A stretch of DNA of 63,903 bases, filler included, from Reclinomonas americana ATCC 50394 (GCA_048213135.1; 28 parts of 28 records of this genome joined end to end with filler, not necessarily neighbours in it); one strand, 5' to 3'; shown: positions 15,863-58,853, counted from the first letter of the whole stretch. The notes: generated from the letters alone by a model not told the origin. Program-made: numbers and translations.

Positions 15863-15928
<66 letters not shown>

Positions 15929-32823: not shown

Positions 32824-33046
32824 CCTGTTGCGTTACCGCGACCCGCAGTGGCTCGAGGGCGTGGCTCTCAGGGATCTACCGGATTCCGGTGCGATTCGAC
32901 TCGTCGACCTCGTCGCGCTCCTCGACGACGCGCCAAACAGCGCACTCGGAGCGGCATACGCCCTCATATGGTCCGACATCGCTCGATGCGATCTCAGCCG
33001 TCCGCTGAGCATGTCCGCCGTAGTCCGATTCGGGCCAGACCGATGA
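32824..33046 (+). CDS. tnsA: TnsA-like endonuclease subunit, C-terminal fragment
   Basis: AYALIWSDIARCDLSRPLSMSAVV resembles the TnsA C-terminal winged helix. ATGA overlap with tnsB. Confidence 0.7.
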
Positions 33047-34298
33047 TCGTCCATCCCGGCGACTTGGTGAGATGGAACGACGAAGACCTGCAAGTCGTCG
33101 CTGTCCGGGCGACCTACACCACGCTGCGCAACGCCGAGATGGGCGAGGATCTCGAGGTACTGAACGCCGATCTCGCTGAGCGCGGCGAGCCAGCAACAGT
33201 GCGGTCGACGACCGACGTGTTGGACTTGGGTGTCCTTGACGAGCTCCCACCCGCCGACCGCAAAGTCGTGGACGTGTGGCTCGAAGAACTCGACCGACTC
33301 TCGGACCTCCTTGAAGCCGGGACGAAGAAGACGCCTGCCTACCAGGTGACCGTCGACAATGTGAATCGTCGACTTGGAACGGACTACAACGCGATCAAGG
33401 TGACGCGGCAGCTTGCCGCTCTCGACGAGTTCGGCGTCGCTGGGCTTCTTGACCGGCGCCGATTCGGGATGGCGGACAGGCCTCGATCAACACAGGATCC
33501 GCGTCTCATCGAAGCGATCGTCTCCGCGATGGACGGTCAGACTCGAGCGTCGACCGGCACGGCCGACCGTCTGATCTGGATGGTAGAGCGCGATCTCGAA
33601 ACCCGGTACGGAAAAGGCGCGGTTGACGTGCCCAGCAGGGCAACGGTCTATCGCCTGATGGAACGGTTGGAAGCCGGACGGCACACATTCGGAACGGCGC
33701 GCACGCGCAGGACGACGGCGAACCAGCCCAGCCACGTCTTCGGCAACCGGACTGGGATGCGCCCCGGCGAACAGGTCTTGATCGACACCACTCCGATGGA
33801 GATTCTCGTCGATTGCGACGGGGAACAGGTGCGTCCTGACCTCACGATCCTGCTCGACGAATGCTCTCGGAGCGTTCCGGGCGCGATCGTGACGATCGGC
33901 ACGCGCAGCATCGATCTCGTTGTCCTGCTCGCACGCGCTCTCGTCCCGTACGCCTACCGGCCCGAGGGTGTTCGCGCCAACCGTCGAAACATCGCCCAAG
34001 CCTGGGTGGGAGACGACGACCTCATTGCGCAACGCTTTGAGGACGCACGCGACGCGCAACAGTACATCTTCCCCGAGACGATCACCACAGACCGAGGAGC
34101 ATCCTATGTGTCGAGACACTTCACCGATGCATGNNNNNNNNNNNNNNNNNNNNNNNNNNNNNNNNNNNNNNNNNNNNTTAATTAATTAANNNNNNNNNNN
34201 NNNNNNNNNNNNNNNNNNNNNNNNNNNNNNNNNCTGCGTCCAGCTGGCCGGTGGCGCCTCCGTTCGGGCTCACGCGTCAAGCGGAAGGAACGGAGTGA
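33043..34298 (+). CDS. tnsB: TnsB/Mu-like DDE transposase, interrupted by an assembly gap
   Basis: HTH VPSRATVYRL, first Asp in RPGEQVLIDTTP, LTILLDECSR and second Asp in PETITTDRG. A short tail (...TRQAEGTE*) ends at 34298, overlapping the tnsC start. Confidence 0.9.
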
Positions 34299-35389
34299 TG
34301 TTCGACGATCTGCTCGCCCAGTTCGACTTCGATGCCCCGACCGTGAACTTCGATTACACGACGAAGGAAGGATGGCGGGAGTTCGTCGAGTTCGATGCTC
34401 CACGTCCCGCGCCTTGCACCATGAGCGCGTACGAGGAGATGGCCTCATCGGACCGAGCAATCTACAACATCGCTCGCGAGCGCTTCATGTCGGTGGGTGC
34501 TCGTATCGCCACACCCTCACTTCGGAGATTCGTTGCGGCAGCCAGCAGTGCGATGGCCGACAATCGCTCGCCCGACGCGAGCAAATCCGGAGTCGTCATC
34601 TCCGGACGACCAAGTATGGGGAAGACGACGGCCGTCCAAGAGTTCGGGCGAGCATATGAACGAGCGCGGCGAGAACGTGCGGGTACTCGAAGAAAGGACC
34701 TGATCCCCGTCGCCTTCGCTCAAGTGCCCACGCACGCGACCGAGAAGACGATGATGAAGAAGCTCGCGGAGTTCTACGCGCTTCCGTTCTCTCAGACAGC
34801 GTCCTACGAGACGCTGCTGGGTCGGGTGAGCAACGTGATGCGGGCCTGTGAGACGGAGATCGTCATCATCGACGATATCCATCGCCTCGATCTGCGCTAT
34901 CGCGCGAGCGAACAAGCGGCGGACGCGCTCAAGGAACTCTCGGAACGCTGCCCCGGAACGATGATCTACGCCGGAGTGAACGTCGCGCAGAACGGGCTCT
35001 TCTGGGGGTCCCGGGGAGAACAGATCATGGCCAGATTTGAGACTGTCCAGTTCGACGAGTACGACGTCGCAACCAACGAGGGAGCTGCGGTCTGGGGAAG
35101 GGTCCTCACTGAACTTGAAGACTCGCTCTGCCTCATCCGTCAGACTGAAGGCGACATTCTGAGGATTGCCGCGGAGCTTCGCGAGATCTCGCGAGGATCG
35201 CTGGGACGCATGGCCAAGGCGATTCGGCGTTGCGCTCGCGATGCGATTCGTGATCGTTCCGAACAACTCGACCTGGATCATCTCCTAGTGGTTCTCGAGA
35301 CGATACGGCGACTTGAAGATCGCGTAGCCGACGAAGCGGCACAGAGCACACGACGATCACGAGGGCGACGGGCGAAGGCTGGCCGATGA
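34295..35389 (+). CDS. tnsC: TnsC/TniB AAA+ ATPase
   Basis: Walker A GRPSMGKT, Walker B IVIIDDIH, IPVAFAQVP, TMIYAGV and QIMARF. Confidence 0.92.
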   Translation: MMFDDLLAQFDFDAPTVNFDYTTKEGWREFVEFDAPRPAPCTMSAYEEMASSDRAIYNIARERFMSVGARIATPSLRRFVAAASSAMADNRSPDASKSGVVISGRPSMGKTTAVQEFGRAYERARRERAGTRRKDLIPVAFAQVPTHATEKTMMKKLAEFYALPFSQTASYETLLGRVSNVMRACETEIVIIDDIHRLDLRYRASEQAADALKELSERCPGTMIYAGVNVAQNGLFWGSRGEQIMARFETVQFDEYDVATNEGAAVWGRVLTELEDSLCLIRQTEGDILRIAAELREISRGSLGRMAKAIRRCARDAIRDRSEQLDLDHLLVVLETIRRLEDRVADEAAQSTRRSRGRRAKAGR

Positions 35390-36391
35390 GAGTGCTGCCG
35401 GCGACGGTCAGCCCGTTCCCGGNNNNNNNNNNNNNNNNNNNNNNNNNNNNNNNNNNNNNNNNNNNNTTAATTAATTAANNNNNNNNNNNNNNNNNNNNNN
35501 NNNNNNNNNNNNNNNNNNNNNNCGGCCGGAGAACTCTGGACCGCCATCCGCAAGTCGAAGCAGGGGCTTCCATTGCGGACAACGCCGGCGGCCGCGCCCG
35601 ACGTGGTCGCGCAACTCGACGATCTACCAGCGAACTGGTTCGACCGAGACGACACCACCAACCGACTCTTCAGCCGCTGCATCCACAACAACTGGGCCCA
35701 CGCGCAATGCGCGCGCTGTTCCGCGCTTCCCAAGCCGGTCACGATGTGTCGGCGGTGCGCGAGTGGTATGAAGGTCGAGGTCCAATCTCGGGCCGGCGCC
35801 TTTTGTGCACGCCACGAGCGCTGGCACTACGACGGGCGCGACGAGGCGATTGGGATCCCCGTCGCGTATGCCCGCGCGGAACGATGCCTGACAGGAACTC
35901 TCTGGGCGCGTGGGATCGGCCTCGACACGGGCGAGATCGAGCTCGCCTGCGAGATCATCTCGACCTACCGTGAATTCGTCTACCGCGATAACTCCACCCG
36001 CAGCGCAGACCAGCGCCTGCGCGACTTCTATCCTGATGCTGTCGAACTGACCGCATTCCTCACGGCGCCTTCGGCACTGGCGTTCCTTCGCAACAGACAG
36101 ATCGGGCACCTTCCCGTCGCCGCGATGGTCGAGGCGGCTGTGACGGCAGTCGCGTCGAGGTCACGGCACCGACTCAGCTCCGTGCACGGGATGTTCCAGG
36201 CCTCCGGCCGTGAACTACGACTGGGCGATTCAGAAACCAAGCCCCTGCGGCACGGGCGCCCCCTTGAAGTTGGAGCGCTTGGTGGTCTGGTCCGTGACAG
36301 TGTCCCTCGTATTCGAGCGGTCTTTCTGCGCCACGACGACGCTCGTCGTCCACTGCCGACGCTGCGCGACCAACCTCCACGCCATCGATAG
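35386..36391 (+). CDS. tniQ: TniQ family target selector 1 (spans an assembly gap)
   Basis: ATGA overlap with tnsC. Starts MRVLPATVSPFP and resumes at 35525. Zn motifs RCIH...CARC and CRRC...CARH. Confidence 0.8.
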
Positions 36392-36396
36392 ACGCG

Positions 36397-37443
36397 ATGC
36401 GTACCCTGCCCATCTACGTCGACCCGGTGCCCGCCGAGACGGTCAGTGGATATATCGGGCGCATCGCCCAGACGCACTGCCTGGAGGTTGGGGAGATTCG
36501 CCGCATGCTGATTCGAGAGGCGGGGCGTTCAACGTGGAGCGACACCGATCCACGTATCGCGCTCGCGCTCGCCCGGCTCTGCGGCCTGCCCGATGATGCA
36601 CTCGAGGTGTCCTTCGAAGACCACGGGATGTGGACTCGCTGCGGTCATCCGCGCTGGAAGCCTCAGAAGTGCCCGCGGTGCCGCACGCTTGCCGAACCAC
36701 GCACTGCCTGCGTGGAATGTGCCGGTGGGCTCGCAACCACTACCCGAGCGAGAACCGGACCTCTCTGCCTGAGGCATGGCCGCTGGACGCTTCGCGGACT
36801 GGACATAAAGGTCTCCGTTGGGGCGTCCGCGCGCCGCGCCGAAGAGACCCTGCGCGGACCACTGTGGGAACGCGGCATCGCCCTGCACACCGGCGAGTAC
36901 AACCTCGCGACCGCAGCGGTACTCGCGTGGTCCCAAGGGCACGACGGTGACACGTTCCTCGACGAGCGCGCCCAACGGCTCGGCCTACCTGCACCGACCA
37001 CGTTTGAGGAGGTGATGTTGTGCGGCTATCCCGAAGTAGTGAGAGTTGTCGAAGTCGCGATGAGCCCACGAATACTCCGCGGCGTCCTTCAGGTGTCGCG
37101 ATCGGCACTACCGCAGATCGATGGCTTCGCAAACATCATCGCAAATGCGCTAAGTGCAACAGTAAACGAGCGCCTACACGACTGGGCGGGCGCCGTCATC
37201 GGTCACGCGCACCGCGCGGTCCTCTACGCTGCGGGGCTCAGACGAACCAAAAGCGCCAAGAACGCCCTATGCCCGCAAGATCGCGCGCTCATCGTCGCGT
37301 CCGGTACTCAACGGGCATGCCTGCTCCGACACGTCTCGCCACGAATACTGGACGGACTCATGCGAGGCCACACTGAGGGCACATCGCGACTGAGCGTGAC
37401 CCGAAGATCTCCCCTGGAACCAGATGAGTTGGCGCTGCCGTGA
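36397..37443 (+). CDS. tniQ: TniQ family target selector 2
   Basis: Canonical N-terminus LPIYVDPVPAETVSGYIGRIAQTH. Zn motifs RCGH...CPRC and CVEC...CLRH. Confidence 0.88.
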   Translation: MRTLPIYVDPVPAETVSGYIGRIAQTHCLEVGEIRRMLIREAGRSTWSDTDPRIALALARLCGLPDDALEVSFEDHGMWTRCGHPRWKPQKCPRCRTLAEPRTACVECAGGLATTTRARTGPLCLRHGRWTLRGLDIKVSVGASARRAEETLRGPLWERGIALHTGEYNLATAAVLAWSQGHDGDTFLDERAQRLGLPAPTTFEEVMLCGYPEVVRVVEVAMSPRILRGVLQVSRSALPQIDGFANIIANALSATVNERLHDWAGAVIGHAHRAVLYAAGLRRTKSAKNALCPQDRALIVASGTQRACLLRHVSPRILDGLMRGHTEGTSRLSVTRRSPLEPDELALP

Positions 37444-37444
37444 C

Positions 37445-37729
37445 CTAGCGGCTGCGGAGATCCGGGGCGCCGTCGGGGACTAAATCAGCCAGAGGCAGAC
37501 CAAGCACCTGCGAGAGCGCGAGCATCGTTCGAAGCGTCGGGTTCGCCGGGTTCCCAGGACGCGACTCTCCTTTTTCGTACTTCTGATACGTGTACCGCGT
37601 GAGGCCCGATCTGTATGCCACATCTTCCTGGCTCAGCCCGGCACGCTCGCGTGCGGAACGGAGCGAGGTCGCGAAGCGCTGGGAGTACGCGCTCCACTCC
37701 GCTTCAATCTCATCGTTCCGTCGGGGCAC
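37445..37729 (-). CDS. XRE-family HTH regulator
   Basis: LRSARERAGLSQEDVAYRSGLTRYTYQKYEKGE...NPTLRTMLALSQVL. Confidence 0.92.
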   Translation of the reverse strand: MPRRNDEIEAEWSAYSQRFATSLRSARERAGLSQEDVAYRSGLTRYTYQKYEKGESRPGNPANPTLRTMLALSQVLGLPLADLVPDGAPDLRSR

Positions 37730-37772
37730 CTACCAAGCGTCTCGACGGGCCACTCCTCGCATGGCCTAATCG

Positions 37773-37798
37773 GTATGGCATAATTCGGAAGGCCATAC
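37773..37798. promoter_or_regulatory. Inverted-repeat operator overlapping an extended -10-like element
   Basis: GTATGGC-N12-GCCATAC between the divergent XRE gene and the next ORF. TGGCATAAT overlaps the left arm. Confidence 0.5.
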
Positions 37799-37844
37799 GA
37801 AACAATCTCGTCCTCGTCGGATCGCTCCGCTCTTCCCTGCACGT

Positions 37845-38402
37845 GTGCTGCCCATCCCGATGACAGGCGGTCGCGTCGCGGGAAGGCCCGTGCGAGCGAC
37901 CGCGATTGTGATGGTTGAGATGCTCGAGTCGTACCCGATCTGGTGGCAGGAAATCGACTCGCCGCCGCCAGCTGAGTGGGTGTTCATGTTCGAGGACTTC
38001 ACCGGTGACGACACAGCCGAGCAGTGGGCGTTGGCGGCGGCGATCTTCATCGCTCAGACTCGTCGCCGCACAACAGCAGGTCCGACCTTTGCAGAGCTCT
38101 TCACACACCTTCTGCCAGACACTGACGGGCTCCCCGGACCCCTGCCACGAAACCTAGACTTCATGCAGCGGCGCCGCGCAGTCGCGGGCTTCCGCGGCCA
38201 CGCGGCAATCGAATGGCGCCGACGAGGAATGATCAGCTTCGACAACGGCGTCATGCGCAGCCTTCGCGTAGGACGCGAGTTTCGCGAGCGGTCGCGGCGT
38301 CGCCAACAGGCCCGAGAAGCCACACGCCATCAGTGCGAAACCGATCGCGAACCGAGCTCGGAACTCACCGTCATGACCGCCATCACGGAACGAGAAAGTT
38401 AA
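37845..38402 (+). CDS. Hypothetical protein with a LexA-like winged-helix region; start may be 37911
   Basis: GPTFAELF...AIEWRRRGMISFDNGVMRSLRVG resembles the LexA DNA-binding domain pattern. Confidence 0.5.
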   Translation: MLPIPMTGGRVAGRPVRATAIVMVEMLESYPIWWQEIDSPPPAEWVFMFEDFTGDDTAEQWALAAAIFIAQTRRRTTAGPTFAELFTHLLPDTDGLPGPLPRNLDFMQRRRAVAGFRGHAAIEWRRRGMISFDNGVMRSLRVGREFRERSRRRQQAREATRHQCETDREPSSELTVMTAITERES

Positions 38403-38403
38403 C

Positions 38404-38814
38404 TTGACCGAGAAATATCCGCCGGAACTCCAGGGCCTCCTCAAGCGGATCGCTCCAGGCTGGCCAGAACTGCTGGAAGTCGGAGCCGGCTGGTACCCGC
38501 TGCTGACCAGACTCGATGCGACACTGTCCGTCATCGCCCCGAACTACGTCATACAGCAGGTGAAATCGAAGTTTGGCGCCCTGAGCCTCTACGCCGACCC
38601 GTCTGATGACCCGTCGAGCTTCGATGAGGCATTTACGGAGGCGGTGCGTGCGGCTGAGTGGGAGAGTATCGAGACGTGCGAGGTATGTGGGGCGCAGGCT
38701 AAGCAGTATGTGATCAGAATGTGGGTCTCGACACTCTGCCTAGGTCACGCGGCCGAGACGAGAGGTGACGCGGTCCGAGAGGGCCTCGAAGGCGAGTACC
38801 GACTGTTCGAATAG
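38404..38814 (+). CDS. Hypothetical Zn-ribbon protein of a phage/mobile-element type
   Basis: VGAGWYPLL...QVKSKFGALSLY...TCEVCG...WVSTLCLGH. Confidence 0.65.
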   Translation: MTEKYPPELQGLLKRIAPGWPELLEVGAGWYPLLTRLDATLSVIAPNYVIQQVKSKFGALSLYADPSDDPSSFDEAFTEAVRAAEWESIETCEVCGAQAKQYVIRMWVSTLCLGHAAETRGDAVREGLEGEYRLFE

Positions 38815-38931
38815 GTGCAGGCCATGCAGGATCGCTCTGGATTCAAGTTCTTCAAACTCTTCAAGAAACCGAGTGCCAGCAGCCATGTGGTCGCGCCTAA
38901 CAACGGTGCGAGCGACACTTGATCGATTGCA

Positions 38932-38985
38932 ACTTGCGCGCGCAAGTGCGACCGGCTACAGTCATGTCAACTTGCGCGTGCAAGT
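38932..38985 (+). promoter_or_regulatory. MFS promoter with two LacI-type operators
   Basis: ACTTGCGCGCGCAAGT (38932-38947, perfect palindrome) and ACTTGCGCGTGCAAGT (38970-38985). TTGCGC-N17-TACAGT promoter. Confidence 0.75.
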
Positions 38986-39068
38986 TACCGCGCAGGTCCC
39001 GAATCCTGAGCGGTTTGCCGTCTAGCAACCGTGCCGAGTTCGGTACCCCCTTCGACAATGGAGTCATC

Positions 39069-40430
39069 ATGACCACGCCCTCTCATCCCGGCACTCCCGC
39101 CGAGGGATCAAGGACCGAGCTGCCGTCGCCACTTCCTCCCGCGCCTGGTGCGCTCCAGGAGGGCATCCGCACGGTTACGGGCCTCGTTCGTCCGCTTCAG
39201 GCCACGCGCTCATACATTTGGCTGCTCGTCCTGGCACAGTTCGGAATCTTCGTAGCGTTCATCACTCCGCTCGCGATCTCTCTTGCGGTGCGGGTGAGCG
39301 CACTGGCGCCGGGCTTCGAAGAGGTGTACCTGGGCTACATCACCGGGGCGGCCTCCATCGTCGTGATGATCATCACTCCTATTGTCGGAATCCTCAGCGA
39401 CCGGACGCGCTCGCGTCTGGGTCGTCGACGTCCGTGGATCCTCGGCGGAATGCTCGTCGGCGTGGGGTCGCTGTTCGTCATGGGTTTGGCGCCGAACGTG
39501 CTTCTGCTCGGGGTGGGTTGGATCCTGGCTCAGATCGGGTGGGGCCAGGCCCTGGCCATCCTCACCACCTCGATGGCAGATACCCTCCCTGAGCACCAGC
39601 GCGGCAAGGTCGCCGGACTTGTCGGGTTTGCCACTCAGGTCGCACCCGTCGCCGGTGTGATTATCGCCGGCACTCTCGTCGCGGATTCGCTCCTGCTCTT
39701 CTTGGTCCCCGGCCTGGTGGGCGTCTTCTTCCTCACCCTCTTCCTGCTCTTCTCTCGAGAGCAGGACAGCCGCGAGATGATTATCTCGGGCGTTCTCACC
39801 ATCGGAACGACGTTCCGGAAGTACCTGTTCAACCCTGCGAAGTACCCCGATTTCTCGCTTGTCTGGTCGGGCCGGTTTTGCTTCTACTTTGGGCTCACCC
39901 TGAACACCGCCTTCACCGCCTTCTTCTTTGCGGCTCGCCTGAACATCAGTGTCGAGGAGATCGCAGGCATTCTCGCCACTCTGAGCCTGGTCGGCATCGC
40001 AGCCACGACCATCGGGGCAATCGGTGGAGGTTTCCTCTCCGACAAGCTGCGCCGCCGTCGGCTCTTCGTTCTCCTGGCATCCGTGATCTTCGCCGCGGGC
40101 GTCGTGACGGAAGCTGTCGCGACGGACATCACGATGCTCTTCGTCGGATCGCTCATCGCGTCCGTGGGCATCGGAGCGTTCTCTGCAGTGGATCAGGCGC
40201 TCCTCCTGGACGTCCTTCCCGAGCGTGACACGGATGCGGGTCGATTCATGGGAATCGCCGGATTCGCCACTGCCATTCCGCAGGCGATCGCGCCGTTCGT
40301 TGCTCCGCTCATCCTCGCGATCGGGGTGACTTCGGCCGGGGACAAGAACTACACCTTGCTCTACTTCATCGCCGGAGCGATCACTCTGGTCGGCGGTCTC
40401 ATCGTGATGCGAGTTCGGCAAGTGCGCTGA
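39069..40430 (+). CDS. MFS transporter (sugar/glycoside)
   Basis: About 12 TM segments, GILSDRTRSRLGRRRPW and GFLSDKLRRRR. GGAG RBS before ATG 39069. Confidence 0.93.
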   Translation: MTTPSHPGTPAEGSRTELPSPLPPAPGALQEGIRTVTGLVRPLQATRSYIWLLVLAQFGIFVAFITPLAISLAVRVSALAPGFEEVYLGYITGAASIVVMIITPIVGILSDRTRSRLGRRRPWILGGMLVGVGSLFVMGLAPNVLLLGVGWILAQIGWGQALAILTTSMADTLPEHQRGKVAGLVGFATQVAPVAGVIIAGTLVADSLLLFLVPGLVGVFFLTLFLLFSREQDSREMIISGVLTIGTTFRKYLFNPAKYPDFSLVWSGRFCFYFGLTLNTAFTAFFFAARLNISVEEIAGILATLSLVGIAATTIGAIGGGFLSDKLRRRRLFVLLASVIFAAGVVTEAVATDITMLFVGSLIASVGIGAFSAVDQALLLDVLPERDTDAGRFMGIAGFATAIPQAIAPFVAPLILAIGVTSAGDKNYTLLYFIAGAITLVGGLIVMRVRQVR

Positions 40431-40444
40431 GTCGACAAGATGGC

Positions 40445-40478
40445 GGGGCCCGCAGCGACTAGCGTCGCTGCGGGCCCC
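40445..40478. terminator. Bidirectional hairpin between convergent MFS and LacI genes
   Basis: Perfect 15-bp stem GGGGCCCGCAGCGAC-TAGC-GTCGCTGCGGGCCCC. Confidence 0.8.
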
Positions 40479-40500
40479 GAGGGTGTGGATGTGAGCCCGA

Positions 40501-41368
40501 CTACTCCTGAGTGGTCGGGGTCACGGATGTCGACGCTCGGGCAATGAGCTTGACCGCGGACGTCTGCTCCCACTCCGGAGTCGGCGTTTCATCCATCGCA
40601 TGAATGGCCAGAGCGGCGAGGTAGTGCCCCAGGCCTGTCGAGTCGATCCGAACACTCGAGATACGCGGCTCGAACATCAGCGCCATAGGGGTGTCGTCAT
40701 GTCCGATGACCGCGAGGCTCTGAGGCACAGCAATCTCCGCACGCGCGGCGGCCCCGATGATGGCCGCTGCGACATCGTCATTGAACGCCACCACACCTGT
40801 GATGCCGGCTTCGATCCATTCCGAGACGGGCGGATCGACCTCAGAAGCTGCAGGATTGAGCTCGAGGGTAGCGGGCGTCTCGAGACCGAGTTCGATCGCT
40901 GCGGCCGTGGCCGCTTCCTCGCGGGCNNNNNNNNNNNNNNNNNNNNNNNNNNNNNNNNNNNNNNNNNNNNTTAATTAATTAANNNNNNNNNNNNNNNNNN
41001 NNNNNNNNNNNNNNNNNNNNNNNNNNGTGCGCGCGCCCTTCGTGCGGCGTATAGGTGATCAGCGCGTACCCGTGCTCATCGAGCGCGTGGGTCGCCTCAT
41101 CGATGTTCTCTCGAAGGCTGTACTCGATAGGCCAGTCCGGAAGAACGAGCAGTACGAGGTGACTTCGTCCACTGGCCAGAGCCCGCGCAGCGATGTGTGG
41201 CCGATACCCTAGGCGTCTCGCTTCCGCGAGCACGCGCTCGGTCGTCGCTGCAGAAATCGTCTGCCCGGGGGTCTCGTTGAGAACGAACCCCACGGTCGCT
41301 CGCGAGACTCCGAGTGATCGAGCGATGTCTGCCGCGGTTACCCGACGGCGTGATTTCTGCAATGCCAC
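40501..41368 (-). CDS. LacI-family regulator (split by an assembly gap)
   Basis: HTH VTAADIARSLGVSRATVGFVLN and GYRPHIAARAL from GTG 41368 (GAAGGAG RBS). C-terminal VAFNDDVA...VPQSLAVIGHDD...LIARAS lies on the neighbouring contig. Confidence 0.92.
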
Positions 41369-41437
41369 TGTCGCTCCTTCGTTGCAGGGTGTGCTCCTCA
41401 CCAAGTCCACCACAGCAAGGAACAGTCTGCAGGATTG

Positions 41438-41491
41438 ACTTGTGCGCGCTAGCACTCATGTTATTCTGATTGTTCACTAGCTCGCGCTAGT
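41438..41491 (+). promoter_or_regulatory. lacI/GH78 divergent promoter with two LacI-type operators
   Basis: ACTTGTGCGCGCTAGC (41438-41453) and ACTAGCTCGCGCTAGT (41476-41491), with an extended -10-like TGTTATTCT between them. Confidence 0.7.
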
Positions 41492-41555
41492 CAGTCAGAC
41501 AATGGAGTCTCGGCAGCCCGACTGTCGAAGCTCTCACTCAAGGAGCGCCGATCCG

Positions 41556-43511
41556 ATGCCCGAACCCCGATCCGCAAGTTTCGTCAGCCCGCCCTCTGCA
41601 CAGGGCGCCGTTGGGGAACATGCCTCGTACCTCCGCAAGGAGTTCGTCGCGTCGAGCGTCCCCCGCCGCGCCACCCTGCGGTCCACCGCCGTGGGACTCA
41701 TCGAGCCGCACCTCAATGGTGCCGTGGTTGGCGACGAGGTCCTCGCACCCGGATGGACCTCATACCGGCATCGGCTCGTCGTGAGTACCCACGACGTCAC
41801 TGACCAGATCACAGCAGGAGCGAATGTCATCGCCGCCGTGCTCGGCGAGGGGTGGGCCATCGGACGTTTGGGCTGGGAAGAGCGACGTCACCACTATTCC
41901 GATCGTCCTGCGGCGTGGTTCGAACTCGAGATCGAGTATGCCGATGGGAGTCGCGACACGATCGTCAGTGACACATCGATGACAGCGTCACGCGGCGGAG
42001 TAGGCGCGAACAGCATCTATGACGGGGAGACGTTCGACGCTCGCAACGAGCCGGATGGATGGGATCGGCCGGGCTTTGACGACAGCGAGTGGGGTCCGGT
42101 CGAGGCCTTCGACTGGCCGCTCGATGCCCTCACGGAGCCGATCGCGCCGCCGATCCGCCGCATCGAAGAGCTGACGCCGAAACAGACTCTGCGCACGCCT
42201 TCCGGCAAGCTCGTCGTCGACTTCGGGCAGAATATCTCTGGCTGGGTCCGTCTCACCGTTCAGGGCGACCCCGGGTCGACGATCACGCTGCGCCATGCAG
42301 AAGTCATGGTCGACGGGGAGATCGAGATCGAGACGCTGCGCACTGCTGCGGCCACCGATCAGTATGTTCTCCGTGGTGGTGCGGTTGAGACGTGGGAGCC
42401 GCGATTCACGTTCCACGGCTTCCGATACGTCGAGGTAGACGGGTGGCCTGGTGAGTTGGCGGACGACGCGATCCGAGCAATCGTCGTTCACTCCGACATG
42501 ACCCGGACGGGATGGCTGACGACCTCCAACCCGCAGTTGAACCAGCTGCACTCCAACGCCGTGTGGTCCATGCGCGACAACTTCGTCGGCATCCCGACCG
42601 ATTGCCCGCAACGTGACGAACGCCTCGGTTGGACCGGAGACATCAACGCGTTCGCTCCCACCGCTGCCTTTCTCTACGACGTCCGAGGTGTGCTCGGATC
42701 CTGGTTGAGAGATCTCGCCGTCGAGCAGGCGGAGAAGGGGTTCGTGCCCTGGGTCGTGCCGGACGTCCTGTCGACCCCTTCCTCTCCGACGGCCCTCTGG
42801 AGCGACGTGGCCGTGAGCCTTCCCTGGGCGCTGTACCGCGAATACGGCGACGAAAAGATCCTCGAGGACGCGTATGTGTCGATGAGCACATTCATCCGCC
42901 AGGTAGCCGACCTCCTCGATGACGACGGGCTGTGGAGCACCGGCTTCCAATACGGCGACTGGCTCGACCCCGACGCCCCCGACGACAACCCCGCCGGCGG
43001 CAAGACCGACCGCCACCTCGTCGCGGGCGCCTACCTGTGCCGCACCACACGCGAGATGGCGGACAGCGCGCGCATCCTCGGGCACGACGATGACGCGGCA
43101 GAGTTCGACGCACTCGCGTCGAGGGTGCGCGAGGCTTTCCGCCGCGAGTACGTGAGCCCGAACGGCCGCCTGGTCAATGAGACGGCGACCGCGTACGCGC
43201 TCGCGATCTCGTTCGGGATCCTCGATGAAGAGCAGACGCGCCATGCGGGTGATCGCCTGGCAGCCGTGGTCGCGCAAGCGGGCTATCGCATCTCGACCGG
43301 ATTCGCGGGAACGCCGCTGGTCACGGATGCTCTGACCTCGACTGGACACCTCGACGAGGCCTACCTCCTTCTCCTGGAGACGAAAGCCCCGTCGTTCCTC
43401 TACCCCGTGACCATGGGCGCGACGACGATCTGGGAGCGATGGGACTCCGTCCGCCCGGACGGAACGATCAACCCTTCTGGGATGACTTCACTGAATCACT
43501 ACGCGCTCGGC
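41556..43511 (+). CDS. Alpha-L-rhamnosidase (GH78), 3' partial
   Basis: LAPGWTSY, DFGQNISGW, FTFHGFRY, IPTDCPQRDERLGWTGD, GDWLDP, GATTIWERWD and MTSLNHYALG. Confidence 0.96.
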
Positions 43512-43611
43512 NNNNNNNNNNNNNNNNNNNNNNNNNNNNNNNNNNNNNNNNNNNNTTAATTAATTAANNNNNNNNNNNNNNNNNNNNNNNNNNNNNNNNN
43601 NNNNNNNNNNN

Positions 43612-43767
43612 CAAGGTTTCGGATACGTGCCGATGCTCCGCGCTGTCCATCAAGCACTGTCCACCGGCGCGACTCAACACTCGCACCATCCTCTGTCCGA
43701 CAGCATCGCGGTACTGGAAACGCTGGACATCCTCCGCTCCGAATGGGCAGTCACGGCGTCCGCCTGA
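43612..43767 (+). CDS. C-terminal tail of a probable Gfo/Idh/MocA oxidoreductase
   Basis: QGFGYVPMLRAVHQALSTGATQHSHHPLSDSIAVLETLDILRSEW fits the family C-terminal helix pattern. Not in the ORF track. Confidence 0.55.
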   Translation, partial: QGFGYVPMLRAVHQALSTGATQHSHHPLSDSIAVLETLDILRSEWAVTASA

Positions 43768-43801
43768 CTGCCTCTCCCTCGATCCTTCTCGAAAGGCAGC
43801 A

Positions 43802-46130
43802 ATGAGCCGTTCACCCCTCAACACCAACTGGACGTACCGCCCCAAGACCAGCATCTTCGCTGACGCGCATGGGCAATCGTCGCCCGGCGTGCCGGTTCAC
43901 CTGCCGCACGACGCGATTATCTCGCTCGAGCGGCATGCCGATGCACCCAGCGGCGCCGCCGGCGCGTTCTTCCCCGGCGGCGCATTCGAATACCGCACCA
44001 CGCTCGACGCGCCACTCGATTGGCGCGACAAGCACGTCGCCCTCGAGTTCGAGGGCGTCTATCGCGACGCGATGATCTACGTGAACGGCGCCTTTGTCGC
44101 CCAGCGTCCCAACGGGTACGCCGCATTCATCGTCTCCCTCGACGGCTACTTGGAGTACGGCGCTGAGAACACTATCCGCGTCGACGCCCGCGCTCACGCA
44201 GACTCTCGCTGGTACACCGGCGCAGGCATCTACCGCGAAGTTCACCTCTGGGTCAGCGAACGAATACACATCCCTGAACAGGCGGGCGTCCAGGTCATGA
44301 CACCGGACGTCGACGACGAGCGGGCCGTGGTGAGCGTCGTCACCCGCGTGACCAACACGGGCACCTTGACGCGCACAGCAACCGTGACGACAGAGATCCT
44401 TGACCCCCAGGGTCGAATCGTCGGCCTCGAGAACAGCCCCGTCACGACGTTCCCTCAGACAGAGGCGACCGTAAGGCAGCGCATCTACGTTCCCGCTCCG
44501 CAGCGGTGGAGCGTCGATAACCCTGCGCTCTACACCGCACGTACCACCCTCGACGGCATCTCAGACACGTCCGAGACTCGAACCACGCCTTTCGGCATCC
44601 GCACGCTGCAGCTCGATCCCGCCCATGGTCTCCGCATCAACGGTGACACCGTGAAGCTACGCGGCGCATGCATCCATCACGACAACGGGATCCTCGGTGC
44701 AGCCACCTTCGCAGACGCTGAGGAGCGCCGCGTCCTCCTCCTCAAAGCCGCGGGGTTCAACGCCATTCGCAACAGCCACAACCCCATGAGCGTCGCCATG
44801 CTCGATGCGTGCGACCGCCACGGCATGCTCGTCATGGACGAGACGTTCGACATGTGGGCCGAATCCAAGTCGCCCTTCGACTACTCGCTGGCATTCCCCG
44901 AGTGGTGGGAGAGAGACGTGGAAGCAATGGTGGCCACGGACTTCAACCACGCCAGTGTGATCATCTACTCGATCGGCAACGAGATCCCGGAGACGGGCAA
45001 CGCGATCGCGAGCCAATGGGGACGGAAGCTCGCCGAGAAGGTCCGTGAGCTGGACGACACACGCTACGTGACCAACGGCATCAACGGCTTCGTGTCCGCG
45101 CTGAGCGAGATCACCGACATGATCGAGGCCGTCGCCGCAGACACCGCTGCCTCGAGCGAGACTGCGGATGCCGAGGCCGACGGCGGAGTAAACGCCCTCA
45201 TGGGGAGCACCGAAGACTTCATGGACTGGGTCGCGACGTCCCCGCTGGTCACCGCAGCCACGGCAGAATCGTTTGCAGTCCTCGACATCGTCGGCCTGAA
45301 CTACGGGGACGCCCGGTATGAGATGGAGCGCCACGAACACCCCAATCGCATCGTGGTCGGGACTGAGACGTTCCCGTCGCGCATCGACCGCAACTGGAAA
45401 CTCGTGACAGAACACCCGCACGTGATCGGGGATTTCACCTGGTCCGGATGGGACTACCTCGGCGAGGTCGGAGTCGGGCGCGTGAAATACGAAGGCGAAC
45501 CCGACGCATTCGATGGCGAATTCCCGTGGCTGACGTCCTGGTCTGCAGACCTCGACATGACCGGGCACCGCCGCCCGATGTCGTACTACCGCGAGACCGT
45601 CTTCGGCTTGCGCACCGAGCCCTACATCGCCGTGCGGCGACCTTCGAACCACGGACGTGCGTTCACACTCGGACAGTGGAGTTGGACGGACGCCGTCTCC
45701 AGCTGGAGCTGGAACATTGAAGATGGCTTCCCGATGGCGCTGGAGGTCTACAGCGACGCCGACGAGATCAGGCTCCAGCTCAACGACCGTGTGATCGCCA
45801 CACAACGCGTTGGTGCTCGACGCGCGTTCGTGGCGGACTTCGAGATCCCGTTCGAATCCGGCGCTCTCACGGCGGTCGCCCTTCGAGACGGCGAAGAAGT
45901 CAGTCGCTCCATCCTGAAATCAGCTGCTGGCGAAGCGCTCCTCGATGTCCGACTCGACAAGACCACCGCAGAACTCCGAGACGGAACGCTCTTCTTCGCT
46001 GAGATTGAACTTCGCGACGGCGGCGGGAGCCTCATCAATGACGCCGATCGTCCAGTCACGGTGACGGTGACCGGGGCAGGGTCGCTGGCGGCCTTCGGCA
46101 GCGGCCGCCCTCGCACTATCGAGCGCTTCG
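43802..46130 (+). CDS. Glycoside hydrolase family 2 (beta-galactosidase-like), 3' partial
   Basis: LEFEGVY, SRWYTGAGIYR, LRGACIHHDNG, GFNAIRNSHNP, YSIGNE, VGTET and WSGWDYLGE. Confidence 0.95.
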
Positions 46131-46294
46131 NNNNNNNNNNNNNNNNNNNNNNNNNNNNNNNNNNNNNNNNNNNNTTAATTAATTAANNNNNNNNNNNNNN
46201 NNNNNNNNNNNNNNNNNNNNNNNNNNNNNNCTCGGCCGGAACGCAACACGCTGTCCGCACACTCCGAATCGATCCCCGCATGAATGGAGCACGA

Positions 46295-47068
46295 ATGACG
46301 GCCCGACTCGCCGACAAGATCATCATCGTCACCGGTGCCGGCTCTGGCATCGGACGAGGCACCGCCCTCCGACTGCTCGATGAAGGCGCGAACGTCGCCG
46401 CGCTCGACCTGCGCGAAGAAGACCTCGCTCACCTCGTCGATGCGGCACCGGAAGACGCGCGCTCGCGACTCCTCATCCACCGCGTCGACATCGCGGACGA
46501 GGAGTCCGTCCGCACCGCGGTCGCAGACGTCGTCTCTCGCTTCGGACGACTCGACGCGATCGTGAACGCCGCGGGCATCCTCTACGGGGATCACACTCAC
46601 GAGATGACCCTCGACCGCTGGAACCGCCTGATTCAGGTGAACTTGACCGGCACGTTCCTCATGGTGCGAGAAAGCCTTCCCCACCTCTTGACGACGGCGA
46701 ACGGTGTCATCATCAACTTCGCTTCCACCTCGGCGTTCTTCGCGCACCCCTACATGGCCGCATATGCCGCGACCAAGGGGGCGATCGCGTCATTCACGCA
46801 CTCGGTCGCCCTCGAATACGCCAGGCAAGGACTTCGCGCAGTCAACATCGTGCCCGGAGGGATCACGAGCGGGATCACCAACACGACCCCGCAGAACCTG
46901 CCTGCAGACACGGACTGGACCTTGCTCGAGCACCTCGGCGCTCCGCTGAACGACGGACGAATGGGCAGGCCTGAAGACGTCGCAGGAGTCATCGCCATGC
47001 TGATCTCGGACGACGGCGCCTTCATCACCGGAACGGAGATCAGGATTGACGGCGGCGCGCACACTTAG
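46295..47068 (+). CDS. SDR family oxidoreductase
   Basis: TGAGSGIG, NAAG, YAATK catalytic motif and FITGTEIRIDGG. Confidence 0.95.
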   Translation: MTARLADKIIIVTGAGSGIGRGTALRLLDEGANVAALDLREEDLAHLVDAAPEDARSRLLIHRVDIADEESVRTAVADVVSRFGRLDAIVNAAGILYGDHTHEMTLDRWNRLIQVNLTGTFLMVRESLPHLLTTANGVIINFASTSAFFAHPYMAAYAATKGAIASFTHSVALEYARQGLRAVNIVPGGITSGITNTTPQNLPADTDWTLLEHLGAPLNDGRMGRPEDVAGVIAMLISDDGAFITGTEIRIDGGAHT

Positions 47069-47084
47069 ACGCCTCGGATGTCAT

Positions 47085-47192
47085 CCGGTCAGGCCTCGGA
47101 CGTCGTCATCAGGATGGGATGCGGTGACGCCTGCCCGTTCTTCCCTGGCAAGCGATACGAGGACTGGAAGCTCGACGACCCTGCCGGTCAGG
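47085..47192 (+). pseudogene. arsC: Internal remnant of an LMW-PTP-type arsenate reductase
   Basis: QASDVVIRMGCGDACPFFPGKRYEDWKLDDPAGQ. The N-terminal P-loop and C-terminal helix are absent. Confidence 0.8.
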
Positions 47193-47247
47193 ATCGAGCA
47201 GTTGGTGAGCGAGCTGGTCTGAATCCCACTCAGAACCAACTGAGACT

Positions 47248-47766
47248 TCAGCGGTTCTGATCAGTGCGCTCGAGAACGGCGGCGATTCCGTCGACGTCCT
47301 CGAGCGTGAGACCCACATGTTTGTTCGGCCGCACGACGAACGAGGGAACCTCGGTCATTCCCGTGAGCCGTCGTTCGGCATCGTCTGGCGCACGGTCGTC
47401 CGCCCAGGCGACGGCGGCTGGCTTCACGTCGCGCACGTATGAGATCAGGCTTTGCAGTCGCCAGCCCTGTTTCGGCCAGTTCTGCCAGGGCACGTAGGGG
47501 CCTGAAAGCTTGCCGCGAAGAGGTTCCTGGATGAGCCAAGCGACTTGATCGTGAGGCCACGTTGTCAGCCACGCAACGTCAACTTCAGTGCCCTCGACGA
47601 GCGCGTCGAGGGCATCGACCACGTCATCGTCAACGCTCATCCACGAACGCCAACCAGGCTCGTCTTGATGCAGAACGCGCTCCTCGTCTCCGTAGATCCG
47701 AGAAATAGTTCCGTCGACGTCGAGCACGAGAAGCCTACGTAGGCGTTGCCGAGCTGACGGTGGCAC
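47248..47766 (-). CDS. HAD-superfamily protein (HAD_SAK/RNA-repair-like type)
   Basis: LVLDVDGT, VAWLTTW, VAWADD and P...VGLT. Confidence 0.8.
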   Translation of the reverse strand: MPPSARQRLRRLLVLDVDGTISRIYGDEERVLHQDEPGWRSWMSVDDDVVDALDALVEGTEVDVAWLTTWPHDQVAWLIQEPLRGKLSGPYVPWQNWPKQGWRLQSLISYVRDVKPAAVAWADDRAPDDAERRLTGMTEVPSFVVRPNKHVGLTLEDVDGIAAVLERTDQNR

Positions 47767-47808
47767 GCTCTCGGCTCCTTTTGGTCATCGTGCGCCGGTC
47801 AAGACACT

Positions 47809-48519
47809 TTAAAGCGGAGCATCCCAGGTCGCGATCGTGAGCTCGACGCGCTCCTCCTCGGATGCGTTCACTGTAATACGGGCATAGTTCCCGGACTGCA
47901 GGCGGATGCAGACGCGTCCATCCAGGCGATGAGGCTCAATCGTCTTCGTCGGAGCGTAGCCGGTGGCAACGGCGCAGGTCTCGTATGAGGCTTCTCCTTC
48001 GGGAAGTCGGAGTACGTCGATACCCCATAGCGACGTGAGGACTCCGTTTGCGAATTGGAGGGTGTCCTTCTGGATCCGATCAGCACCGTTTCCGAAGTTG
48101 GGGAGCGTCGAGTTCAGGTCGACCGAATCGCCGCCGGCGGCCAAAGTCACGGTGCCGATGTTGCGTGCATCAGGAACCTGCTCCGGCGGGATGCTCGGCG
48201 GGAGCGCGGCGAGGAGTTCGCGGTTCTCTGCGCGGAGGTCCTCGACGATCTCCTCGCGATCAGTGAGCAACGCCTCGGCGGTCGCCACATCTTGGTGCAG
48301 CCCATTGATCGTGGCGTTGAGATGCGCGACGTCTGAGTTCAAGCTTGTCACCCATACCCCGAGCGCGACGCTCACGATCGGCGCAACTACGGCTAGCGAG
48401 TTCGCGATCACGCCGAGCACGCTGGAATGCCGGCCCAATCGGAGATTGCCGCGCTCGACACGTAAAGGATTGAAAGAAGTCTCAGGCATGAATCGCATAC
48501 TGGATCCTGCCACCGACAT
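47809..48519 (-). CDS. Hypothetical membrane-anchored coiled-coil protein
   Basis: One TM segment, a heptad-like stretch and a beta-rich C-terminal region with a Cys pair. Confidence 0.6.
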   Translation of the reverse strand: MSVAGSSMRFMPETSFNPLRVERGNLRLGRHSSVLGVIANSLAVVAPIVSVALGVWVTSLNSDVAHLNATINGLHQDVATAEALLTDREEIVEDLRAENRELLAALPPSIPPEQVPDARNIGTVTLAAGGDSVDLNSTLPNFGNGADRIQKDTLQFANGVLTSLWGIDVLRLPEGEASYETCAVATGYAPTKTIEPHRLDGRVCIRLQSGNYARITVNASEEERVELTIATWDAPL

Positions 48520-48653
48520 CGTGACTGTCCCCGCTGACCGCCCGCGTGGTAATCAACTCATGGACACCGCCGCGTGCACCTAGTCCGCACCAAGGCATTG
48601 CTCACACAACCGCTCGGGCCCGCCAGGATGGCGCAAGATGTAGACGGGAGGCG

Positions 48654-48769
48654 ATGCCGATGAATCTCTACCTCGTAAGGAACCCCGACGGCGTGCCTGT
48701 CTGGGTGGCACTCGAAGATGACCAGAAGCGCCTGTACTCGTACGTGCAAAACACCGGGAAGTTTCATCT
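48654..48769 (+). CDS. Hypothetical protein, 3' partial
   Basis: GGAGG RBS, then MPMNLYLVRNPDGVPVWVALEDDQKRLYSYVQNTGKFH to the contig end. Confidence 0.5.
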
Positions 48770-48871
48770 NNNNNNNNNNNNNNNNNNNNNNNNNNNNNNN
48801 NNNNNNNNNNNNNTTAATTAATTAANNNNNNNNNNNNNNNNNNNNNNNNNNNNNNNNNNNNNNNNNNNNCT

Positions 48872-49369
48872 ATTCAACCGCGGTACGCGCGCGAGCTCCT
48901 CGGGTTCAATGACACGCTGATCCAGCTACGCGAACGGCCTGCGCTGGGGCTCGCCCGCGAGTTCGTCTATTTCGCTGCACCGAAGATGAGACACTGGGAC
49001 ATCCCGACTCGCGTGCTTTGGTATGTGACCAAAGATCCCAGGGCGCGAGAGAGCAGCGCCGTCCGAGCTGTGGTGGCACACTCCCGCGTACTCGATGCTG
49101 AAGTACTGGACGTCCAGGACGCGGCTGAGAAGTATCGATCACTCGGCGTCCTGCACCGAGACGAGATTCAAGGTCATGCGATTGACGGAAAGGTGCTTGT
49201 GCTGAGGTTCGAGGACACGCAGGTGCTTGACCAGCCCGTCGGCAAGCGCTCGTTCGACGCTCTGCTCCGCAAGCACGGAATCACGACGTCGCTACTCACA
49301 ACGCGTACCGGAGCTCCGGGTCTTTTCGACGACATCATCCGCACGCAGCCAGGATGGGACGCCAGATGA
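48872..49369 (+). CDS. C-terminal PUA/ASCH-like domain of a larger protein (likely GNAT-associated), 5' partial
   Basis: Open from the contig start: IQPRYARELLG...LGLAREFVYF...RVLWYVT...AVVAHS. Coupled (ATGA) to the ASCH gene. Confidence 0.6.
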   Translation: MQPRYARELLGFNDTLIQLRERPALGLAREFVYFAAPKMRHWDIPTRVLWYVTKDPRARESSAVRAVVAHSRVLDAEVLDVQDAAEKYRSLGVLHRDEIQGHAIDGKVLVLRFEDTQVLDQPVGKRSFDALLRKHGITTSLLTTRTGAPGLFDDIIRTQPGWDAR

Positions 49370-49819
49370 AGAGGGCGCTGCTGATCTCAGTGAAACCGCG
49401 CTACGCGCGCGCGATTCTCGAAGGACGGAAAAACCGTCGAAGTGCGACGGAGATTCCCAGAGGTGCCACCCGGCACCACAGTTGTTCTGTACTCCAGTTC
49501 CCCGGAGAGAGCTGTTCTGGGAACGGTGCGCCTCGAACAGACAATCACAGTTCCTTCCGATCGCGTGTGGGAGATGCACTCCAGCGCGATCGACATCGCC
49601 GAAGACGCGCTCGGCGAGTACCTTGAGGGCGCTGAAGACTCCACTCTGCTTGAAGTGGAGGACCCGCAAACGTGGGCACGCCCTGTCTCGTTGACGTCCT
49701 TGCGGGCTCTCCTCGGCCTTGAGCCACCTCAGAGCTTCCGCTATCTCGACGCGGATCAGGTGGCTCTAATCGCGACGAGCGGTGCGAACTCGACGCACTC
49801 GACGGGCCCGTCACAGTAA
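49366..49819 (+). CDS. ASCH domain protein with one extra A at 49429-49433
   Basis: LLISVKPRYARAILEGRK / TVEVRR (GxKxxExR motif split by the frameshift), VVLYSSSP and PPQSFRY. Confidence 0.85.
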
Positions 49820-50309
49820 CGGTTCGCTAGATTCTCCGACGCACTCTCGCTACTCGGCGCGTGGCGATGCACCAGTCCTCCGGCGGTTCTGCACACGGCT
49901 CGACCCGATCGCCCTTCGATTCAGCGCCGCGTGACGCCGTTGAGGAGACAGTGCGAGGATGCGAGGGTGGATCAGCTTCCTATGCCGTTGAAATCGGTCA
50001 ACGTTTGCGAGNNNNNNNNNNNNNNNNNNNNNNNNNNNNNNNNNNNNNNNNNNNNTTAATTAATTAANNNNNNNNNNNNNNNNNNNNNNNNNNNNNNNNN
50101 NNNNNNNNNNNAGCCGCGATGCGATGCGATGTTCTTACTGATGGCGGGGCCCGATCAACAACTCTGCACAGATCGCTCCGCTCATCATTGAGCTGCCGTT
50201 CGAGGTACCGCTTCCCGGTGAGTACGACGACATGGTCGCCAGACTGCAGGCCGCCGCGGTTTGTGTCGAGAAGACTGAAACCGCAAAGGCGGGCCATCGG
50301 CGCAGATTC

Positions 50310-50413
50310 TGACAACTCGGATGAGACGCATAGGGGCCGGCGCGTGCTTGAGATTTCGCGTGATTCCGGCTCAGTCGCGTCTCACCTCATGACAACTCCA
50401 GTGAGATCGGACA
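50310..50413 (-). mobile_element. Candidate Tn7-like transposon end
   Basis: Direct repeats TGACAACTCGGATGAGAC (50310) and TGACAACTCCAGTGAGAT (50390), and an inverted partial GCGTCTCA near 50377. The minus strand from 50413 reads TGT-CCGATCTCACTGGAGTTGTCA. Confidence 0.6.
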
Positions 50414-58825: not shown

Positions 58826-58853
58826 TATCCCGCCACTCACTTCTCTCGTGCAG

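Follow-up and report, generated by a model that had tools for sequence, protein, structure and literature searches.

The core genes of a Tn7-like transposon, arranged in the order tnsA-tnsB-tnsC-tniQ1-tniQ2 and encoding two tandem TniQ proteins of 318 and 348 amino acids (aa), lie at positions 32824 to 37443 of the DNA analysed here (the window: 63,903 nucleotides (nt) from the Reclinomonas americana ATCC 50394 assembly GCA_048213135.1, numbered from its first letter). The window consists of 28 contigs and 27 identical artificial 100-nt spacers, each of the form N44-TTAATTAATTAA-N44, with the core genes split over three of these contigs (32824-34133, 34234-35422, and 35523-40926; contigs 15, 16, and 17), among which no end overlaps were found. 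Because the locus runs over three spacer-joined contigs, tnsA, tnsB, and tniQ1 are present in the window as fragments, and tnsC and tniQ2 are the only complete core genes. As the contigs are joined by spacers alone, their adjacency needed evidence from outside the window.

A search with TniQ2 yielded three loci encoding a 90–93% identical protein, namely the complete chromosome of Microbacterium sp. PMB16 (locus L001, genome G001), a contig of a metagenome-assembled genome (MAG) labelled Microthrixaceae (L002), and a locus of Microbacterium sp. SD291 (L003). The three window contigs map to each of these with order and strand preserved and with 89–96% identity, lying at positions 5723-7031, 7891-9075, and 9127-12375 of L001 with implied gaps of ~859 nt and ~51 nt, and the tnsB tail and tniQ1 head carried by the middle contig agree with the proteins of relatives. 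Given this colinearity with three related loci, one of them in a complete genome, the three core-gene contigs are truly adjacent, including those carrying tnsC and the tniQ genes, a point on which the original prediction had allowed that it could fall. Homology to G001 restarts in contig 20 (its positions 986-2539) exactly at the point where contig 17 stops, and contigs 22–24 match the G001 chromosome further downstream, and therefore contigs 15–24 stand in chromosomal order. All of the predicted ORFs (open reading frames) and junctions were recovered, with the tnsA stop overlapping the tnsB start in an ATGA at 33043-33046, the TGA stop of tnsB overlapping the GTG start of tnsC in a GTGA at 34295-34298, the tnsC stop overlapping the tniQ1 start in an ATGA at 35386-35389, and tniQ1 (stop at 36391) separated from tniQ2 (start at 36397) by 5 nt, a gap that is also 5 nt in L001. 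The coupled five-gene operon that had been described holds in its gene order, which is colinear in L001, L002, and L003, but not as a continuous unit within the window, where it is spread over three contigs with artificial spacers between them.

The proposed profile searches matched TniB/AAA_22, TnsA, and rve_3, with TnsA and TnsB matched in their full-length L001 copies. The window portion of tnsA (32824-33046, plus strand) comprises the last 73 codons and stop, contig 15 beginning within the gene, and its translation corresponds to the C-terminus of the L001 and L003 TnsA proteins. This 73-codon fragment has no Pfam match of its own; full-length L001 TnsA (247 aa) scores 184 bits (cut-off 110) against NF033179, the NCBIfam “TnsA-like heteromeric transposase endonuclease subunit” (TnsA_like_Actin), and 28.5 bits (cut-off 26.5) against PF08722. 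The first 363 codons of tnsB (33043-34133, plus strand) are cut at the contig end and share 92–96% nucleotide identity with L001 and L003 tnsB, whilst its last 20 codons and stop (34236-34298, plus strand), at the start of contig 16, have a translation identical to the L003 TnsB tail, with ~286 codons missing between the two pieces. The window tnsB fragment ends before or within the rve domain and gives a weak HTH_32 match only, and full-length L001 TnsB scores 26.8 bits against rve_3 (cut-off 26.5) and 23.4 bits against rve, under the cut-off of the latter. The assignment of TnsB as a DDE transposase is thus a narrow one, since the rve_3 score is barely above its cut-off. The AAA+ regulator tnsC (34295-35389, plus strand; 364 aa) matches PF05621 (TniB) with 69.8 bits against a cut-off of 22.4, and AAA_22 with 44.1 bits, and has a ratio of nonsynonymous to synonymous substitution (dN/dS) of 0.03–0.06 against relatives (Nei-Gojobori, pairs with dS < 0.6).

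The first 12 codons of tniQ1 lie at the end of contig 16 (35386-35422, plus strand), encoding the peptide MRVLPATVSPFP, which is the N-terminus of L003 TniQ1, and contig 17 opens within the gene at about codon 31 and carries it to its stop (35523-36391, plus strand) with ~89–90% identity to L003 TniQ1, whilst tniQ2 (36397-37443, plus strand) is complete. Against the TniQ family PF06527 (cut-off 27), TniQ2 scores 32.4 bits in the window and 29.8 bits in L001, whereas full-length L001 TniQ1 reaches only 19.3 bits and the tniQ1 fragment of the window gives no decisive match; TniQ1 is nonetheless a clear paralog of TniQ2. The window TniQ1 and TniQ2 share 32% identity over 158 residues (E 2e-24), and the full-length proteins of relatives 31% over 296 residues (E 4e-36). 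The original prediction was therefore right in seeing two similar-sized paralogs that align beyond the N-terminus and carry the motifs it quoted, with TniQ2 at 348 aa and TniQ1, in relatives, at 318 aa. TniQ2 has 41 homologous clusters, for which the sources that name an organism name Microbacterium and some annotations read “TniQ family protein”, and 29 of its 30 nearest ESM Atlas clusters are TniQ. Family profile scans recognised no DNA-binding extension in either protein, both being core-sized, and a TniQ-profile sequence search of solved structures gave nothing significant (best TniQ chain E 0.79).

Both paralogs share a Cys/His pattern of C82-x-H84-x7-C92-x2-C95, followed by C105-x2-C108 and C124-x2-H127, with all eight positions invariant in 19 TniQ1-centred and 30 TniQ2-centred sequences. 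The second half of this pattern (CxxC...CxxH) is found in 11 of 11 aligned TniQs, and the first half (C-x-H-x7-C-x2-C) in four of four Microbacterium-group TniQs and none of seven other actinobacterial TniQs. From this distribution, the extra CxH-x7-CxxC site noticed ahead of the usual motif is a real and lineage-specific addition, judged on the aligned sequences, and is common to single-TniQ elements too. The eight conserved residues are predicted to bind zinc.

A profile search for TniQ1 and TniQ2 in 401 Microbacterium genomes gave matches in 43, of which 21 have two adjacent same-strand matches and 13 a full-length single match only, the remainder being cut by a contig end (one) or showing weak or partial matches (eight). 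ORF-level checks confirmed pairs in 17 of the 21 genomes, in line with the expectation that relatives keep the pair, and found a lone TniQ right after tnsC in all 14 single-type loci fetched. Leaving aside ORFs with obviously extended starts, TniQ1 measures 299–338 aa and TniQ2 348–371 aa in these relatives, and the tniQ1 stop overlaps the tniQ2 start in six lineages (ORF coordinates of L145–L150). The suggestion that a pair is typical of all actinobacterial TnsA-type elements was rejected, as, of the 16 loci that had tnsC together with DNA downstream of it (drawn from 17 of 401 genomes), seven carried one Pfam-detectable TniQ and none carried two; this check covered same-strand ORFs of at least 150 aa within 4.5 kilobases (kb), 74 ORFs in all, with a TniQ profile that is weak for the group. 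The lone TniQs in those loci are 178–988 aa long, some with helix-turn-helix (HTH) extensions.

In a FastTree phylogeny of 46 proteins (16 TniQ1, 15 TniQ2, 12 singles, and three other actinobacterial TniQs; near-duplicates L148, L157, L160–L162, and L166–L168 excluded, as was L068), all 15 TniQ2 proteins and nine single TniQs form one clade with support 99, and TniQ1 falls into two clades (support 99 and 100), both outside the TniQ2 clade, with an internal branching order that mirrors that of TniQ2. The Microbacterium TniQ1, TniQ2, and single proteins split together from the three other actinobacterial TniQs with support 100, their basal order being left open by the tree. In an IQ-TREE quick search of 17 rows, the sister group of TniQ1 is TniQ2 together with the second L067 gene, at a Shimodaira-Hasegawa-like approximate likelihood ratio (SH-aLRT) support of 90. 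TniQ2 thus groups with the single TniQ of sister elements as its apparent ortholog, and TniQ1 groups as a separate, co-diverging lineage. The dN/dS ratios are 0.21–0.36 for tniQ1 and 0.15–0.22 for tniQ2 (Nei-Gojobori, own script, pairs with dS < 0.6). Over residues 181–348, mean identity is 0.47–0.59 within each paralog (0.49–0.50 for the C-terminal half of TniQ1 within its lineage) and 0.19–0.22 between paralogs, with 0.65 within and 0.37 between paralogs in the zinc region; the N-terminal and zinc regions are those most alike between the two, at 0.26–0.37 identity. Ratios well below 1, together with this within-paralog conservation, indicate that both genes are maintained under purifying selection, each with its own C-terminal half.

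Contigs 15–22 hold one Tn7-like cut-and-paste transposon of Microbacterium, extending from before 32824 to 50413. The tnsA-side end in relatives has a TGTCC..TCTCAC repeat at its terminus and, behind it, three or four further contiguous ~20-nt repeats starting with TGT, and at the far end two inverted repeats lie dispersed in G001, G494, G789, and the window, so that TGT...ACA termini with asymmetric repeat arrays are present; TnsB would bind these end repeats. The left end in the window (50304-50413, minus strand) comprises the terminal repeat at 50387-50413, which matches the end motif exactly, along with another repeat at 50308-50327, and aligns to the left end of G001. The window element therefore runs from its unassembled right end, before 32824, through to 50413, and the DNA past 50413, along with contigs 23 and 24, shows synteny to the chromosomal DNA that lies downstream of the G001 element. 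The G001 element spans 2081914 to 2104293 (22,380 base pairs (bp)) with GCGAG on each flank, in G494 a single-TniQ relative of 19.4 kb has TGTCC on each flank, and CACTC borders a stacked insertion in G1158 on both sides, giving a 5-bp target-site duplication in all three; in the 36.7-kb single-TniQ relative of G789 the duplication is not clear-cut. As a query for the far end, near-end repeats of the TGTAGA type found no match in G001, L002, L003, or the window, where the general terminal motif worked. An apparently empty site in G205 also proved misleading for setting the bounds of the element, since its only G001 match was a homologous transporter gene ~86 kb away and not synteny.

The core ORFs, and 14 ORFs of at least 143 aa between 41.0 and 53.1 kb, gave no match to a cas, tnsE, or recombinase family, and no resolvase turned up in the core or the scanned cargo. 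The only PADLOC match of the cas kind was TniQ itself; no cas gene was found among the scanned ORFs, and no search aimed at CRISPR arrays was made. With the TniB, TniQ, TnsA, and rve_3 matches, the description of a CRISPR-less Tn7-like element without visible cas, tnsE, or recombinase gene stands for the ORFs scanned.

Just outside the tnsA-side end, a block of ~165 nt is found in all six of the first loci read (L001, L002, L003, L064, L065, and L067), common to them despite different end repeats. The block lies at L001:4836-5000 (G001:C1:2081743-2081907) and is absent from the window, and the first transposon base lies 59–67 nt from its conserved TATAACR motif, with L002 carrying its own divergent version at the same spacing. 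As the block occurs in 297 of 401 Microbacteriaceae genomes, with a single match in nearly all listed, and the TniQ group in only six of the 401, the block is a feature of the host and not of the transposon. In a phylum-wide sample of 151 genomes, its covariance model gave matches in three. When 29 copies are aligned, an invariant core of 31 nt and two hairpins stand out, with compensatory changes at 14 of 28 predicted pairs on the plus strand and 15 of 36 on the other strand; G-U versus A-C counts show a mild preference for the plus strand, on which many copies have a further hairpin and then a T-run ~20–25 nt before the insertion point. No Rfam family matched the block, with two sub-threshold, chance-level matches for L001 (E up to 1) and none for the five other loci (E up to 0.1). 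The block is probably an unannotated small RNA gene or leader, just downstream of which the transposon would insert with its tnsA-side end nearest. A recurring ORF pair beside the block in empty sites has no Pfam family and may be spurious.

The tnsA-side flanks were read for 23 paired and 19 single elements. Among the paired elements, 17 lie directly at the block, two at the block but displaced, and three elsewhere, with one that could not be placed; for the single elements the corresponding counts are 11, none, seven, and one. The question of where homologous elements insert is thus answered by a single block for 19 of the 22 determined paired elements. In both displaced cases, a later single-type insertion has entered the first 12–15 nt of the paired element's end and cut it off, one of these later insertions being flanked by CACTC. 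Insertion is site-specific, and several Tn7-like lineages use the block as their attachment site. Stacks of up to three Tn7-like elements at a single block occur in G1158:C33 (~23.9–52.4 kb), G894:C15/C35, G925:C1, and G850 (L182), and some genomes have two block copies 1.3 to 13 kb apart.

Paired elements away from the block occur in G847, G947, and contig 2 of G925. In G947 the element is located within a truncated FAD-binding monooxygenase gene, whilst the element on G925 contig 2 is a second copy of one that occupies the block on contig 1. On that contig (L173:4490-4660), the right ends of a paired and a single-type element face each other ~170 nt apart, and ~160 nt of the DNA between them is 97.5% identical to an unoccupied intergenic site in plasmid B from Microbacterium sp. 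No. 7 (NZ_CP012699.1:50549-50707; 93.8-kb plasmid), where the adjoining genes carry the annotations M23 peptidase and large ATP-binding protein. This ~160-nt sequence may be a second, plasmid-borne attachment site serving both single and paired elements. A single second attachment site for the off-site pairs was rejected, as these lie in a monooxygenase gene, the plasmid-type 160-nt site, and unrelated DNA.

On balance, the arrangement is somewhat more probably explained by a second targeting route centred on TniQ1 than otherwise. TniQ2 would be the selector of the attachment site, since it is the ortholog of the sole TniQ in sister elements at the same site; it would recruit TnsC beside the non-coding locus, with TnsC then activating TnsA and TnsB as a heteromeric transposase. 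TniQ1 would be an older duplicate, its C-terminal half kept within its lineage and unlike that of TniQ2, and most likely provides the second route alone or via a partner, as is the case for the second TniQ of other Tn7-like elements. Several observations weigh against such a route. Among determined cases, the off-block share is not higher for paired (3/22) than for single elements (7/18), and therefore a working second pathway is not visible from element positions, with the three off-site paired elements having no common target. An identical single-TniQ end lies at the block in G896 and at the plasmid-type site in G1008, so that one TniQ may already serve more than one site, and one of the alternative sites is occupied by both paired and single types. 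Furthermore, full-length L001 TniQ1 falls under the PF06527 cut-off (E 0.0019), the deep TniQ branches are not settled by the trees, with FastTree flagging long-branch joins and IQ-TREE run as a quick search only, and the tnsA-side end and attachment block are unassembled in the window.

The presence of 19 of 22 determined pairs at one block, with no excess elsewhere, would suit a different arrangement, in which TniQ1 and TniQ2 form one obligate hetero-oligomeric selector, both being needed for block recognition and TnsC loading. The core size of both proteins, neither with a recognised DNA-binding extension, the co-divergence of the two lineages, and the stop-start overlap of tniQ1 and tniQ2 in six lineages (a 5-nt gap in L001), which suggests coupled expression, point the same way, and a dimer of paralogs is plausible given that the TniQ of type I-F3 is reported as a homodimer (bioRxiv 10.1101/2021.05.25.445634). 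However, single TniQs of the TniQ2 clade use the same site at the same spacing without TniQ1, and co-divergence and gene overlap are also expected from mere linkage in one operon; we consider an obligate selector unlikely, if a serious contender. The similarity between the paralogs, greatest in the N-terminal and zinc regions (0.26–0.37 identity), is consistent with TniQ1 acting as a modulator that competes with TniQ2 for TnsC, damping or timing transposition with no targets of its own, and a small TniQ is described as lowering TnsD-directed homing in type I-D and I-B2 CRISPR-associated transposons (PMC10293859, PMC9881144). The conservation of the C-terminal half of TniQ1 within its lineage (0.49–0.50) weighs against modulation, because a pure competitor for TnsC would not need it, and this role appears distinctly improbable. 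That the pair is an artefact of a chimeric contig join, or a decaying duplicate of which one copy is being lost, might be suspected from contigs joined by artificial spacers without end overlaps and from the sub-threshold Pfam score of TniQ1, but is barely credible in view of the colinearity of the contigs with a complete genome and two other loci, the match of the gene ends on the middle contig to relatives, the intact pairs in 21 genomes, the dN/dS well below 1 for both genes, and the eight invariant Cys/His residues. A broader proposal, that either a hetero-oligomeric protein-only selector, or TniQ1 with an unrecognised partner opening a second, possibly plasmid-directed route, reads the structured DNA of the non-coding locus, strikes us as rather improbable; if true, it would be a targeting mode not yet described for Tn7-like elements.

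In prototypic Tn7, TnsABC+D serves for insertion at attTn7, downstream of glmS, and TnsABC+E is its other route. The geometry deduced here, with insertion just downstream of the block and the tnsA-side end nearest, is that of Tn7 at glmS. In contrast to Tn7, the scanned ORFs of the present element include no TnsE and no long TnsD whose C-terminal region binds DNA, insertion is at a non-coding locus and not at glmS, the spacing is ~60 nt, and the TniQs carry an extra Cys/His site. The tniA-tniB-tniQ-tniR transposons Tn5053/Tn402 likewise combine a TniB-type ATPase with TniQ; however, the element here has TnsA, no resolvase found, and site-specific chromosomal insertion as opposed to res-site hunting.

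Tandem tniQ genes have been catalogued before, with Faure et al. 2023 (PMC10293859) reporting tandem tniQ/tnsD in 1,048 loci (998 dual in a second count) compared with 2,905 single, including “two tniQ genes” pairs, and attributing tandem genes to repeated in-situ duplication followed by neofunctionalisation. The present element resembles this dual tniQ-tnsD class, as described there, in its tandem TniQ-family genes directly after tnsC, in the lack of CRISPR association, and in paralogs whose groups are nearer to one another than to the remaining actinobacterial TniQs, a pattern that would be expected of in-situ duplication with later divergence, but differs in that one member of a pair is usually >400 aa in that account, compared with 318 and 348 aa here. 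The same study describes small extension-less TniQs as a hallmark of elements that use additional selectors, such as Tn6022 with its accessory selector TnsF, and on this comparison a small extension-less TniQ would need a partner (PMC10293859); in contrast to Tn6022, no TnsF-like or recombinase-like gene is seen here, the neighbours being an XRE-type HTH gene and two ORFs. CRISPR-associated transposons also have two TniQ-family proteins, there assigned to two pathways (PMC10293859, PMC11406308, PMC9881144), whereas no cas gene was found among the scanned ORFs of this element and neither TniQ is TnsD-sized. According to a 2024 Annual Review (PMC11406308), two pathways usually come from two TniQ proteins, and Hsieh and Peters 2022 (PMC9881144) likewise relate two TniQs to two pathways in the usual case, adding that the two can interfere with each other.

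The two-TniQ layout is thus a catalogued class and is not new in itself. The original prediction of a possibly poorly characterised actinobacterial targeting mode loses its novelty to the tandem tniQ loci already catalogued (PMC10293859), and its own refuting condition, a match to a family characterised before, is half borne out. However, according to Benler 2021 (PMC8649781), experimental tests have been made on no element of the Actinobacteria-dominated clade. Literature searches over full texts, judged by title and abstract, turned up nothing on these Microbacterium elements or on a TniQ heterodimer. What is new here is the core size of both TniQs, the extra Cys/His site, the orthology of TniQ2 and the single TniQs, a co-diverging pair in about half of the related elements, and the attachment locus, which is non-coding, conserved, and covarying, occurs in about three quarters of the searched Microbacteriaceae genomes, and has no Rfam family. 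Research on Tn7-like elements treats them as natural machines for site-specific DNA insertion, and the occurrence of one-TniQ and two-TniQ elements within one genus and at one attachment site makes the added value of a second small TniQ directly testable.

Downstream of the core genes, an XRE-type HTH gene of 94 aa (37445-37729, minus strand; HTH_3 47.1 bits) is convergent with tniQ2 and adjoins both paired and single tniQ elements. Divergent from it are two conserved ORFs of 185 and 136 aa (37845-38814, plus strand), with homologs after tniQ in several relatives. Neither ORF has a Pfam or NCBIfam family, the nearest Atlas clusters of the 185-aa ORF are hypothetical proteins of Actinomycetota, and PADLOC and ESM Atlas searches with the HTH gene and both ORFs gave nothing useful. 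This module (37445-38814; L152, L165–L169) accompanies otherwise diverged paired and single-TniQ cores, with L152 having near-identical module genes yet a different TnsC and a single TniQ, which suggests that the module is exchanged or contributes to the biology of the element itself. Homology to L001 and L003 stops near 38773. The variable cargo of contigs 17–22 (38815-50303, strand not assigned) encodes an MFS transporter, a LacI fragment, an alpha-L-rhamnosidase, a GH2 glycosidase, an SDR protein, and a HAD-family protein, as recognised by Pfam. The G001 cargo includes a 942-aa STAND-type NTPase (L001:14225-17053; NPHP3_N 30.2 bits, weak PADLOC matches), possibly a defence gene, which has no counterpart in the window copy.

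Related elements, 89–96% identical, occur in different genomes, one of them beside a divergent attachment block, which is indirect evidence that the element may transpose actively. No plasmid record matched the tnsC-to-tniQ2 DNA. The L002 element (L002:4245-13088) is 91–95% identical to those of Microbacterium in a MAG assigned to another class, and carries a 1.4-kb insertion at the place of the HTH gene in other loci. As L002 has its own divergent block at the same spacing, this element reflects either recent transfer between distant hosts, and hence a different host background, or a mis-binned contig. Elsewhere in the window, contigs 1–7 and 26–28 (1-17597 and 58413-63903) have a lower G+C of 0.52–0.60 and extreme strand skews, with an AT skew of up to 0.69, with common end overlaps of 31–62 nt in contigs 2, 5, 6, and 28, and, unlike the Microbacterium-type contigs 15–24, may derive from another organism or from repeats.

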